Source: Candidatus Omnitrophota bacterium (GTDB lineage: Bacteria; Omnitrophota; Gorgyraeia; Gygaellales; Profunditerraquicolaceae). Taken from it: 41,626 nucleotides of DNA. Location of the stretch: NCBI GenBank assembly GCA_028711825.1, contig JAQTRM010000002.1:1-41626 (forward strand), written 5' to 3'. Under the pieces are notes generated by a model. The model saw nothing but the letters and a program-made list of their open reading frames with translations. It did not search any database and was not told the origin of the DNA. A program made the translations under genes and the position numbers. Below are positions 6,850 through 30,711 of this stretch, one piece after another; position 1 is the stretch's first letter, and the number at the start of each line of letters is the position of its first letter.

Positions 6850-7394
6850 TCTTCCTTGCTTTTTACGGGGAGGACCTCGATTTTAACCTTACCGGACTGT
6901 CCGTCTTTAACCAGGAAACCCCGGTTTTCTCCAGCAGGGACTCCGGAATTACTGTTTTTTACAGATTGCTTCTCCTTGAGGACTTTCTGCGGATTAATCC
7001 GGGGCCCTGAAGAGGAAGGCTGCCCGGACCCGGCGTAAATACTTTTCTGGATTGTAACAAGCGCCTCATTCTGGGCCTTAACCGCCTTCAACTCATCCTG
7101 CATGCCGGACTTCTCCCGGAAAAGGCGCCTTAGCCTATCGCGGCCAGCCTTAACATAGGCTTTAAGCCGGGCGTTTTTCTCGGTCAGATTTTTATTGGAA
7201 ACCTTCTCCTTCCCCAATTCCTGCAATAAGTTTTGTTTCTCCTTGGTCAATGAAAGAACTTCTTCCCGGGTTTTCTGCAAATCACTCTGGAGTAAAGAAC
7301 GCGTTTTTAACCACCCCGTATATCCGAAAAGAGCGAAACCGGAAAAAATTAAGAATAAAGCAAGCGCTAGAGTTTTAATCCTTTCCTTATTCAT
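6846..7394 (-). CDS. Hypothetical membrane-anchored coiled-coil protein
   Basis: 182 aa. One N-terminal TM helix (ALALFLIFSGFALFGY) followed by a heptad-rich K/E/L/Q region. No recognisable family. It is in the operon frame with a 4-nt overlap to the downstream gene. Confidence 0.5.
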   Translation of the reverse strand: MNKERIKTLALALFLIFSGFALFGYTGWLKTRSLLQSDLQKTREEVLSLTKEKQNLLQELGKEKVSNKNLTEKNARLKAYVKAGRDRLRRLFREKSGMQDELKAVKAQNEALVTIQKSIYAGSGQPSSSGPRINPQKVLKEKQSVKNSNSGVPAGENRGFLVKDGQSGKVKIEVLPVKSKEE

Positions 7395-7435
7395 AAGGCT
7401 ATATTATATAATCACCCTCTCAAAAAGCAAGCTAT

Positions 7436-7679
7436 TTTCAGCTTTCAGCTATCAGTCGTCAGCCTTTAGCTAAAGCCGAGAAGCAAAAAACGCGTAACTG
7501 GTAATTAGTAACTCGTAATTTAGAGCAAAAGCTTAAAGAATGCGCCTTAAGCCTAAGGTTAGGAACAATTACGCTTTCAGAAGTATATGGTTTTGTTTTT
7601 GGTTTAAATCCTAATTAATTACGAGTTACTATTTACGTTAATTCTGTTTTTGCTGAAGGCTGATAGCTGACGGCTGAAA
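7436..7679. repeat. Nested heptad-periodic inverted-repeat element, TCAGC/GTAAC type (copy A)
   Basis: Outer left arm, 5 heptads: tttcagc tttcagc tatcagt cgtcagc ctttagc (7436-7470). Inner left arm, 4 heptads: gtaactg gtaatta gtaactc gtaattt (7494-7521). Unique core of about 95 bp. Inner right arm: taattac gagttac tatttac (7616-7636). Outer right arm, 4 heptads: gctgaag gctgata gctgacg gctgaaa (7652-7679). The right arms are reverse complements of the left-arm heptad types. Confidence 0.8.
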
Positions 7680-7738
7680 TCATAAAAACCAGTTAGATTT
7701 TCGCGTTTTCATCGTCTATTGTTCCGAAAGGAGGAAAA

Positions 7739-9277
7739 ATGACCTCAAAAACCTTAAGCCTCAGCCTTCTGGGGCTGGATGTCTATATTGTAGAGATAGA
7801 AACCGATCTGTCCAACGGCCTGCCGGCGGTAAACCTGGTAGGATTGGCGGATGCGGCAGTCAAAGAAAGTAAAGAACGGGTGCGCGCGGCGATCAAAAAT
7901 TCCGGCTTCCAGTGGCCGGACCAAAGAATAACCATCAGCCTTGCGCCTTCAGACATTAAAAAAGAAGGTGTAGGTTTCGATCTGGCGATCGCGCTGGGAA
8001 TCCTTGCTTCCGACGGGCAAATTAACGGGGAAACCCTGAAAAATTATTTTTTCCTGGGAGAGCTTTCCCTGGACGGACAACTGCGCGCCTCCCGCGGCAT
8101 CCTTGCGATGGGGCTGGAACTATCCAGGCTGCCGGGCGGGAATAAAAACCTGATCATCCCGGAAGAAAACTCCCGTGAAGCGGCAATTATCCCGGGAATT
8201 TCCGTTTGGGCGGTTAAAAATCTTAAAGAAGCGGTTCGTTTCCTGGCGGAGCCCGCATCTTTAGGCCCTTTAAAGAAGGAAATCGCGCAGATCGGAAAAA
8301 GCTCAGCGGATTATAGTCTGGATTTTTCCGAAGTTAAAGGCCAATATTACGCCAAAAGAGCCCTGGAGGTAGCGGTTGCCGGGGGACACAATATTATCCT
8401 GTTAGGCCCTCCGGGGAGCGGGAAAACCATGCTCGCGAAAAGGATACCCACCATTATGCCTAAACTTTCACCGACGGAAGCGCTGGAGATCACCAAGATC
8501 CACTCTGTGGCGGGAATCCTGCCAAAAAATGAAGGTTTTATCAACACCCGCCCCTTCCGCTGCCCGCACCACAGTATTTCCGATATCGCGCTTATCGGCG
8601 GAGGAAGTATCCCGAAACCCGGAGAGATTTCTCTTTCCCATCACGGCGTGCTATTCCTGGACGAACTTCCGGAATTCAACCGGAAAGCCCTGGAGGCATT
8701 GAGGCAACCTTTAGAGGAAAACCTGATTTGTGTCAACCGTATTAAAAAAACCGTGGTTTTCCCCGCCTCATTCATACTGGTAGCGGCCCTCAACCCCTGC
8801 CCCTGCGGTAACTATTTCAACCCCCATAAAAAATGCCATTGCAGCCAGACTAAAATCCGTAATTACCTGGGCAGGATATCCGGGCCCCTTCTGGACAGGA
8901 TCGACCTGCATATCGAAGTAGCGCAAGTAAGATACCGCGAACTTTCGGATACCCGTGAAGCGGAACCTTCTCAAGCAATCCGGCAGCGCGTGGAAAGCGC
9001 ACGCGGCATCCAAAAACAAAGGTTTTCCTGCGAAGGAATATCTTCCAACTCCCAAATGACCGCTAAGCTTATCCGGAAATACTGTGTTTTAGATAAGGAA
9101 GCCCGCGAGTTGATCAGGATGGCGGTCGAAGAATTTTCTATCTCGGCAAGAGGATATGACAAGATACTCAAGGTGGGCAGAACGATCGGCGACCTGGACG
9201 GCAGCCAGGAGATCAAGGCCGAACATATCGCCGAAGCGATCCAATATCGCGCGCTTGACCAAAAAATCCCCGGGTAG
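7739..9277 (+). CDS. comM: YifB/ComM family Mg-chelatase-like AAA+ ATPase
   Basis: 512 aa. Lon-protease-like N-domain; Walker A LLGPPGSGKTMLA; Walker B GVLFLDELPEF; ALRQPLE; C-terminal ARGYDKILKVGRTIGDLDG. Strong RBS aaggagg at 7727-7733. The only plus-strand gene. Confidence 0.9.
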   Translation: MTSKTLSLSLLGLDVYIVEIETDLSNGLPAVNLVGLADAAVKESKERVRAAIKNSGFQWPDQRITISLAPSDIKKEGVGFDLAIALGILASDGQINGETLKNYFFLGELSLDGQLRASRGILAMGLELSRLPGGNKNLIIPEENSREAAIIPGISVWAVKNLKEAVRFLAEPASLGPLKKEIAQIGKSSADYSLDFSEVKGQYYAKRALEVAVAGGHNIILLGPPGSGKTMLAKRIPTIMPKLSPTEALEITKIHSVAGILPKNEGFINTRPFRCPHHSISDIALIGGGSIPKPGEISLSHHGVLFLDELPEFNRKALEALRQPLEENLICVNRIKKTVVFPASFILVAALNPCPCGNYFNPHKKCHCSQTKIRNYLGRISGPLLDRIDLHIEVAQVRYRELSDTREAEPSQAIRQRVESARGIQKQRFSCEGISSNSQMTAKLIRKYCVLDKEARELIRMAVEEFSISARGYDKILKVGRTIGDLDGSQEIKAEHIAEAIQYRALDQKIPG

Positions 9278-13267: not shown

Positions 13268-13574
13268 AATCAGCTATCAGCTATCAGCTTTCAGCAAAAG
13301 CAAAACCCTAAAGATGCCGTAACCAGTAACTCGTAACTGGTAACTGGTAACTGGTAATTAAATCAAAGGCATAAAGCGGAAAAAACAATCTTGGGAGAAA
13401 ATGAATTATTTGTGACTTTTGGACACAGCGAATTTATCCTTAAATGATTTTTGCTTTTAATTACGAGTTACTGATTACTGGTTACGAGTTACGTCTACTT
13501 TATTTCTGGCTTTGCCTTTGTTTTAGCTGATAGCTGAAGACTGACAGCTGAAGACTGACAGCTGAGGGCTGAAA
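13268..13574. repeat. Nested heptad-periodic inverted-repeat element, TCAGC/GTAAC type (copy B, most complete)
   Basis: Outer left arm: aatcagc tatcagc tatcagc tttcagc (13268-13295). Inner left arm, 6 heptads: gtaacca gtaactc gtaactg gtaactg gtaactg gtaatta (13319-13360). Core of about 97 bp. Inner right arm, 5 heptads: taattac gagttac tgattac tggttac gagttac (13458-13492). Outer right arm, 7 heptads: gctgata gctgaag actgaca gctgaag actgaca gctgagg gctgaaa (13526-13574). The element ends 1 nt from the mnmE stop codon. Confidence 0.85.
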
Positions 13575-30422: not shown

Positions 30423-30481
30423 GTCACGCTTTCCGATTAAAATCATAACATCCAAAAGGACAAAACTCAAGGCAAATCAAC

Positions 30482-30516
30482 CTTCAGCTATCGGCTTTCA
30501 GCCTTCAGCTATCAGC
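30482..30516. repeat. Left outer arm of a truncated TCAGC-type heptad element (copy C)
   Basis: Five in-phase heptads: cttcagc tatcggc tttcagc cttcagc tatcagc. They are followed by an A-rich spacer (ccaaaggcaaa) and a degenerate gtaatagttaatg. There is no matching GCTGANN right arm anywhere up to the tRNA genes. Confidence 0.7.
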
Positions 30517-30711
30517 TAACCCAAAGGCAAATATCAGAAGGTAATAGTTAATGCGGAAAAATCAATTCCCGAATACCCCGGTCTAAAGACCGAAGTTTGT
30601 TTCTAAATTGTGCTTCAATTATGCTTGGGCATCCTTAAGTGAAATCAAAGGAATGCTCAAGCCGCTTCCATCCCCGGCGCTCTAAGGGCGGGGAATTAAG
30701 GCGGCGAACGC

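Follow-up and report, generated by a model that had tools for sequence, protein, structure and literature searches.

Introduction

Tandem heptamers, the cyanobacterial short tandemly repeated repetitive (STRR) sequences among them, are over-represented in many bacterial genomes, and intervening sequences (IVSs) in 23S rRNA have been known for about 30 years. To our knowledge, neither the heptamer arrays nor the 23S rRNA IVSs have an accepted mechanism or origin. The element considered here, designated copy A, is a palindrome built from nested arrays of heptads that lies upstream of comM in a 41,626-nucleotide stretch of DNA from a Candidatus Omnitrophota bacterium (the window; GenBank assembly GCA_028711825.1, contig JAQTRM010000002.1), which is contig C33 of a 1.29-Mb, 85%-complete metagenome-assembled genome (MAG). 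Copy A is a gene-less two-layer member of a heptad-armed, IVS-like family, other members of which carry a gene for a four-helix-bundle protein (PF05635); a mechanism for the spread of the family is proposed below. Copy A is probably a lineage-specific insertion of a composite palindrome of this four-helix-bundle cassette family and not a conserved operator. The locus offers a clean comparison of filled and empty sites, a within-species excess in rate of change, and placement rules on the scale of a genome, to which are added two negatives, the lack of covariation between arms and the existence of array-rich genomes without a PF05635 gene.

In the S23p IVS of Coxiella burnetii, GACAGAT heptamers vary in number by strain and a 28-bp stem is cut by RNase III; the heptamers beside S23p are mentioned in that paper in passing only (PMC4990558). 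Xanthomonas GGGAATC heptamers form 70–75 convergent pairs (PMC4692102), and TAACTGA heptamers form arrays in Beggiatoaceae (PMC4679880); no partner protein is named for either. Our full-text searches of the literature gave no paper linking PF05635 to heptamer arrays in general.

Copy A resembles the 23S rRNA IVSs of Coxiella burnetii and Leptospira in having a long stem of terminal inverted repeats (in Coxiella 28 bp, and in the outer arms of copy A 28 nt), in its tandem heptamers of strain-variable number, in its apparently selfish, patchy distribution, and in having gene-bearing siblings, on contigs C58, C29, and C73 of the same genome, that encode the same protein family (PF05635/TIGR02436). 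In contrast to them, it lies outside an rRNA gene, has no open reading frame (ORF), and has two nested repeat layers; it is also probably outside any transcript, so that RNase III excision may be irrelevant here. With MITEs (miniature transposable elements with inverted repeats) and with REPINs, which are paired repetitive extragenic palindromic (REP) sequences (PMC3116915), copy A shares its short, intergenic, palindromic, and gene-less form, its presence or absence between relatives, its abundance within a lineage, and the existence of related gene-carrying forms with the same ends. Unlike those elements, members of the present family have only their arms in common, with unique cores, and show no evident target-site duplication; a 5–6-nt word is repeated to make up each arm, in place of one long terminal repeat, and the associated gene encodes a four-helix-bundle protein without known transposase activity. 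The bacterial heptamer repeats (STRR, GGGAATC, and TAACTGA) are likewise intergenic arrays of a few units, often in convergent inverted pairs, with a patchy distribution that suggests horizontal spread and with unknown function, but the words are different here, there are two nested layers, and adjacency and phylogeny link the arrays to a protein family. A further relative is Avd of diversity-generating retroelements (DGRs; NF033474), a pentameric four-helix bundle of the same protein family as the C58 protein, which matches it weakly (E 1.6e-6, below cut-off); the five chains of the Protein Data Bank (PDB) relatives 2GSC and 2RLD and the peak of array length at five units are also in keeping with this likeness. 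A DGR reading was rejected because the genome has no reverse transcriptase (PF00078) and no template/variable repeat pair.

Architecture of Copy A

Copy A is a two-layer nested palindrome of 244 bp (window 7438–7679) upstream of comM, in a 344-bp intergenic region (7395–7738) between comM and a minus-strand coiled-coil gene. Because comM is the only plus-strand gene of the window, this intergenic region is its only divergent one. The nested heptad layout that a sequence-only reading had placed at 7436–7679, and its statement that the 344-bp region is the only divergent one, are both borne out. The outer left arm (7438–7472) consists of five TCAGCYN heptads (TCAGCTT, TCAGCTA, TCAGTCG, TCAGCCT, and TTAGCTA), the third and fifth of which are degenerate, and is followed by an A-rich spacer (7473–7493) that is partly complementary to the T-rich spacer of the other half. 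The inner left arm (7494–7521) has four GTAAYNN heptads (GTAACTG, GTAATTA, GTAACTC, and GTAATTT) and leads to a core of 94 nt (7522–7615). The inner right arm (7616–7636) has three NNRTTAC heptads; beyond the T-rich spacer (7637–7651), the element ends in an outer right arm (7652–7679) of four NRGCTGA heptads (GCTGAAG, GCTGATA, GCTGACG, and GCTGAAA). An inverted-repeat search gave outer arms of 28 nt with 86% complementarity and inner arms of 20 nt with 95%. The perfect 15-nt inverted match reported in the sequence-only reading exists, but its coordinates were one base off; the two halves are at 7506–7520 and 7617–7631.

The heptad patterns far exceed chance in the window, with 11 and 16 matches where 0.12 and 0.00 were expected. 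The hairpin fold of copy A has a z score of –5.9 as DNA and of –5.8 and –6.6 as RNA for the two strands, and none of 200 shuffled sequences folds as well. As in S23p-type IVSs, the terminal inverted repeats are able to form a long stem. Copy A contains no ORF and no remnant of a four-helix-bundle gene (hmmsearch E > 9), a promoter/terminator scan of 7300–7800 found no intrinsic terminator, and a search of a phage collection gave no match. With Rfam at gathering thresholds, just two tRNAs were found in the whole window, and copy A sits between protein genes and not in helix 25 or helix 45 of a 23S rRNA gene. At relaxed E-values, the only Rfam match in 7350–7760 was to a miRNA hairpin (22 bits as compared with a 100-bit cut-off) and was discarded as spurious.

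The window holds two further copies. Copy B (13270–13572) has the same two-layer architecture around an unrelated core, and copy C (30477–30516) is a one-armed TCAGC array. The sequence-only reading gave copies A and B one layout, which holds for the architecture, but the likeness is limited to the arms and spacers. Alignment of the full elements A and B scored 60 as compared with 18.5 for shuffled sequences, whereas the two cores alone scored 16 as compared with 14.8, a value reached by 159 of 500 shuffles, and are not similar. Core A also has no similarity to the interior of copy C or to the core of a GTAAC element in the genome designated G042 (p about 0.3), and it was found nowhere else in its own genome. 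Core B is marginally similar to the core of the G042 GTAAC element and to the interior of copy C (shuffle p = 0.014 and 0.006, respectively).

The core of copy B (13358–13460) has short ordered blocks in common with that GTAAC-element core (L163, G042:C19), from a genome of another family ('aaaatgaattattt'), and it shares the short ordered block 'gcggaaaaa.caat' with copy C (30517–30660). These blocks hint at a conserved inner-element core that copy A lacks.

Filled and Empty Sites Upstream of comM

The region upstream of comM was compared in 28 relatives, mostly of the same Genome Taxonomy Database (GTDB) genus, whose ComM proteins are 58–75% identical to that of the window. All have a rigid skeleton in common: TATATTATATAA-N11-AAAAGCAAG, a first variable segment (slot 1), GTTAGAT-N14-CGTCTAT, a second variable segment (slot 2) that contains the Shine-Dalgarno (SD) sequence, and the ATG of comM. 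The minimal form of slot 1 is 9–22 nt and reads 'ctattttctccttaaaaacca', and its length over the relatives ranges from 9 to 163 nt. In the window, slot 1 is 260 nt and consists of 'ctatttt', the element, and 'tcataaaaacca'; an empty allele would have '...AAAAGCAAGCTATTTT' joined directly to 'AAAAACCAGTTAGATT'. The insertion point is exactly between the A-tracts that precede two outward-facing motif pairs. None of the 28 relatives has a heptad element in slot 1, and 14 of them have unrelated inserts of more than 40 nt there. The presence/absence comparison that the sequence-only reading proposed for the orthologous region therefore gave empty sites in all 28 relatives, and its suggestion that the element inserted where insertion is tolerated is supported by the other inserts as well; slot 1 is a tolerated insertion hot spot.

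When metagenome contigs were scanned once with the left flank, which is specific to the species, two contigs of the same species (L057 and L058) were recovered, both with the element at the same place. The orthologous site is thus polymorphic, the element being absent from the 28 relatives and present in three conspecific sequences, which shows that the insertion postdates the split of the species from its congeners and predates the divergence of the sampled strains. Of the 244 element positions, one is changed in L057 and 10 are changed in L058; the latter figure (4.1%) compares with 0.09–0.32% in about 6 kb of flanking genes, so that the element changes roughly 20–40 times faster than its flanks. 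At such a rate of change, unique cores are compatible with descent from common copies. Seven of the changes in L058 fall together within a 24-nt stretch of the left arm and spacer, and no donor sequence for this patch was found elsewhere in the genome.

Different inserts were observed at the same locus in relatives. Slot 1 of six congeners (L011, L016, L018, L053, L013, and L042) contains one or two tandem 'gcaagcactttatagctttatctagcgtagtcc' units together with a GC-rich hairpin. The 'gcaagcactttatagctttatctagcgtagtcc' inserts duplicate the edge of the –35 motif and are of a different kind from the heptad element. A second insertion hot spot lies between CGTCTAT and the comM SD sequence, in the presumed comM leader (L001, L028, L030, and L031), with inserts of up to 155 nt, some of which are TAAGT/ACTTA heptad palindromes.

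Association of Heptad Words with PF05635 Genes

PF05635 matches three genes in the genome, and each lies between inverted arrays, of TCAGC on C58, AGTAG on C29, and AGGTA hexads on C73. The outer TCAGC arms of copy A match those of the C58 cassette, with the word array before the complement array, and its inner GTAAC arms match cassettes in four other genomes (G042, G078, G100, and G111). The order of word before complement is the only non-trivial part of this arrangement; the orientation of the gene relative to the arms was set aside as uninformative because both strands of the palindrome read 5'-TCAGC...GCTGA-3'. The C58 protein belongs to TIGR02436, the depositions of its PDB relatives 2GSC and 2RLD contain five chains each, and PADLOC gave no match for it.

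Of 151 genomes sampled from the same order, 77 have the four-helix-bundle family, and 84 ORFs of the family were retrieved with their flanks. A tandem array is present on at least one side of 65 of these ORFs. The median gap is 10 nt on the start-codon side and 11 nt on the stop-codon side; at such distances, the arms of gene-bearing cassettes must belong to the mRNA. The clades of the protein coincide with the flanking words: the tree requires 16 label changes as compared with a mean of 36.5 and a minimum of 32 for shuffled labels, and the TCAGC, AGTAG, and AGGTA clades have support of 98, 99, and 100, respectively. Each of the three proteins of the genome groups with same-word proteins of other genera and not with its own paralogues.

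Words and genes are also coupled at the level of genomes. The TCAGC triple-heptad pattern has 86 matches in the genome of the window and 12–133 in 13 other genomes; of the 27 congeners sampled, 25 lack it and the remaining two have 3 and 5 matches. TCAGC-flanked genes were found only in four genomes, all of which belong to the 14 (of 151) with abundant TCAGC arrays. Similarly, the four genomes with GTAACT-flanked genes (G042, G078, G100, and G111) are all among the 11 of 151 with at least four GTAAC matches, and in G100 and G111 every GTAAC match is on a different contig from the gene. The hypergeometric probabilities are about 5e-5 for TCAGC and 2e-5 for GTAAC, with the caveats that the cassette arms contribute a few matches themselves and that not all genes were fetched. 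Genomes that hold a gene flanked by a given word also hold ORF-less arrays of that word.

Form and Placement of Heptad Arrays in the Genome

In a census of the genome, 46 loci held 61 TCAGC arrays, with 14 inverted pairs whose members lie within 1.5 kb of each other. Arrays of AGTAG/T, TAAGY, AGGTA (a hexad), and GTAAY are also present, together with rarer words. A stringent and a phase-run census agree in placing TCAGC and AGTAG as the two most frequent words; AGGTA is third in the former and fourth, after TAAGC, in the latter. The length of TCAGC arrays peaks sharply at five units (33 of 61 arrays). Positions 6 and 7 of the heptad are Y-N, and neighbouring units nearly always differ there. 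No compensatory covariation was detected at these positions: paired arms match at 51%, as compared with 57 ± 3% between different elements. The NN positions therefore match no better within an element than between elements, which places the constraint on each word and not on the stem.

TCAGC elements of other genomes are often plain palindromes in which the arms abut ('...TCAGCTGA...') or enclose a loop of 5–40 nt. GTAAC arrays in G042 and G078 are mostly of five units, in single-armed or simple paired forms. Composite elements of the present genome enclose further modules, including a REP-type motif of the same kind as the sequences that flank the gene for a REP-associated tyrosine transposase (RAYT) on C38. 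Such forms would fit a stepwise build-up in which insertions enter palindromes at their centres.

Outward-facing promoters adjoin the ends of arrays at about ten times the chance frequency, with an outward σ70-like promoter (–35 starting 4–20 nt away) at 14 of 60 outer ends as compared with 1.4 ± 1.2 at random non-ORF positions. A stop codon lies within 5 nt at 12 of the 39 sides that face the 3' end of a gene. Divergent regions are not favoured: of 35 classifiable loci, 3 are in such regions, with about 7% expected. The simplest reading of this placement, given how small slot 1 shows the ancestral spacers to be, is that an element can persist only where it falls into dead space separating functional signals.

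Eleven TCAGC heptads were observed within a putative recG-like coding sequence of another genome (L146, G047:C3:27750–28250), which suggests that arrays may be tolerated within genes.

Proposed Origin of Copy A

The element entered a spacer of roughly 20 nt that separates the A-tracts of two divergent, back-to-back pairs of promoter-type motifs, and it sits at slot 1 because no other part of this very compact intergenic region offers slack. In the mechanism that we propose, the family would spread as non-autonomous partners of cognate four-helix-bundle cassettes; for the outer word, TCAGC, the presumed cognate gene is resident on C58, and for the inner word, GTAAC, cognate genes would be found only in relatives. 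Selection would act on individual 5–6-nt words, most simply through recognition by a protein, and not on the stem. Composite elements would be the product of one palindrome entering another at its centre, and no intermediate of this kind is seen at the present locus. More speculatively, the PF05635 proteins, which are pentamers in the solved relatives, might be sequence-specific readers of arrays of about five heptads, each protein clade and its word forming a cognate pair, with gene-bearing cassettes autonomous, gene-less palindromes as dependants that colonise dead space, and composites made by insertion at palindrome centres; we hold this extended scheme only tentatively. If it were true, the heptamer repeats (STRR, GGGAATC, and TAACTGA) and the rRNA IVSs would have a single mechanism in common. 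The pentameric-reader hypothesis is testable with oligonucleotides and the three small proteins of one genome.

Several observations weigh against an origin of copy A by insertion of a mobile member of the cassette family. Core A bears no relation to core B and has no second copy in the genome, from which it follows that the element is not a classical copy-and-paste MITE. No target-site duplication is evident between filled and empty sites, although the nearest empty sites are in other species and a duplication of 1–3 nt could escape detection. The element is present in all three sampled strains, and hence no empty allele was seen within the species. Protein clades and words might correspond simply because a gene and its arms are inherited together as a cassette. 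In this genome (85% complete), no four-helix-bundle gene with GTAAC flanks was detected, and gene-less elements contain no four-helix-bundle remnant. Two genomes, G070 (111 TCAGC matches, 93% complete) and G099 (14 matches, 92% complete), have no PF05635 gene at all, and no TCAGC-armed PF05635 gene was detected in the TCAGC-rich genomes G125, G040, and G031; arrays can therefore persist where no such gene is resident.

The idea that the gene-less elements are decayed cassettes was examined separately and rejected: a six-frame hmmsearch of 14 paired elements with a profile of 81 proteins recovered only the intact C58 gene.

Alternative Explanations

Among the other explanations considered, mobilisation of the arrays as REP-like sequences, or as bacterial interspersed mosaic elements, by the RAYTs (Y1 family) of the genome, acting on single-stranded hairpins, is the best placed, and it is nevertheless unlikely. 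The genome has three RAYT genes (C25:6158–6499, C38:3143–3478, and C54:6227–6559), of which that on C38 passes the NCBIfam REP_Tyr_transpos cut-off; a C38-type REP-like module of roughly 70 nt is nested in four heptad elements (on C13, C41, C51, and C97), and insertion into palindrome centres would suit a hairpin-directed enzyme. However, each of the three genes is flanked by its own GGGGAC...GTCCCC hairpins and not by heptads, the heptad words co-vary with the four-helix-bundle clades and directly flank those genes instead, and copy A itself contains no RAYT-type REP. A role for a RAYT in the catalytic step of mobility is possible.

The arrays might instead have formed in situ, by replication slippage of simple repeats followed by palindrome formation, with no mobility. 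The unique cores, the lack of a visible target-site duplication, the variation in unit number, the clustered patch of changes in strain L058, and the strain-variable heptamer numbers of the Coxiella IVS (PMC4990558) are all in keeping with slippage. It would not account for a whole 240-bp structure that is present or absent against a conserved 20-nt slot, for unit numbers that peak sharply at five, or for the recurrence of the same words in other families of the order, where they are tied to protein clades. Adjacent units nearly always differ at NN, which is the opposite of a product of slippage, and 86 TCAGC matches in this genome stand against none in most congeners. We regard an origin by slippage as improbable on these grounds.

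A role at the level of RNA has a similarly poor standing. The element would be a long hairpin in the leader of comM or of an antisense transcript and would be excised by RNase III in the manner of a 23S rRNA IVS. Stems of 28 and 20 bp are of the size of an RNase III substrate, the arrays are necessarily in the mRNA of gene-bearing relatives, and RNase III cuts the Coxiella IVS within its repeat stem (PMC4990558); by analogy, RNase III excision is plausible for the gene-bearing cassettes. At the present locus, however, both conserved motif pairs face outward, which puts the element upstream of both presumed transcription start sites, and there is no terminator-like or Rfam feature.

The least probable explanation is a selected regulatory device, namely a shared operator, an insulator, or a supercoil-absorbing cruciform for comM and the divergent coiled-coil operon: the element does have a divergent promoter-type motif on either side, a setting in which cruciform extrusion would be promoted by negative supercoiling, all three conspecific strains have kept it, and its family adjoins promoters far more often than expected, but the strains differ by just 0.2–0.3%, so that retention says little, the closeness to promoters is explained by compact ancestral spacers, and an operator would be conserved, whereas the promoter motifs are invariant and the element is missing from 28 of 28 orthologous loci and evolves faster than its flanks by the factor given above. 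The shared operator or insulator suggested in the sequence-only reading is thus not supported, the family having no preference for divergent regions, and annotators should not take the large structure that separates comM from its divergent neighbour for a regulatory site.

Conserved Motifs Flanking Copy A

Two conserved blocks bound copy A and lie outside it. On the left is a promoter-like block of the minus-strand coiled-coil gene (7400–7431, minus strand), with a –35 TTGCTT at 7425–7430, a 16-nt spacer, and a –10 TATAAT at 7403–7408, which is invariant in the 29 loci compared. The ATG of the coiled-coil gene is 8 nt past the –10, and this arrangement (7392–7431, minus strand) is kept in all relatives. 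TTGCTT-N16-TATAAT is predicted to be the minus-strand promoter, and the mRNA of the coiled-coil gene is probably leaderless. A strict consensus promoter scan of 7300–7800 called nothing, the TTGCTT/TATAAT block included, and the promoter reading therefore rests on its conservation across relatives.

The right boundary is formed by GTTAGAT-N14-CGTCTAT (7692–7719, plus strand), which lies 19 nt before the comM ATG and is also invariant in all 29 loci; it is a candidate promoter or operator. The motif occurs six times in the genome (7692–7719 of the window, C38:~3058, C54:~6643, C46:6876, C104:3054, and C14:1766). Five of the six occurrences lie 17–23 nt before a start codon, that on C104 lies about 40 nt before one, and two precede RAYT genes. 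The CGTC of the motif resembles the –10 of extracytoplasmic function (ECF) sigma factors, and the motif is a candidate for an alternative-sigma promoter or for the signature of a small regulon. On C14, the motif and its SD sequence run directly into a heptad element.

Additional Observations

The L058 contig ends at window position 13283, within the left arm of copy B, and 5 of the 46 TCAGC loci are at contig ends. Heptad arrays fragment MAGs in this way and may hide cassette genes. TTTAGGG is the plant-type telomere word, and short TTTAGGG-like heptad arrays with variable positions were observed at C49:22729–22762, C34:27551–27579, and C57:707–728.

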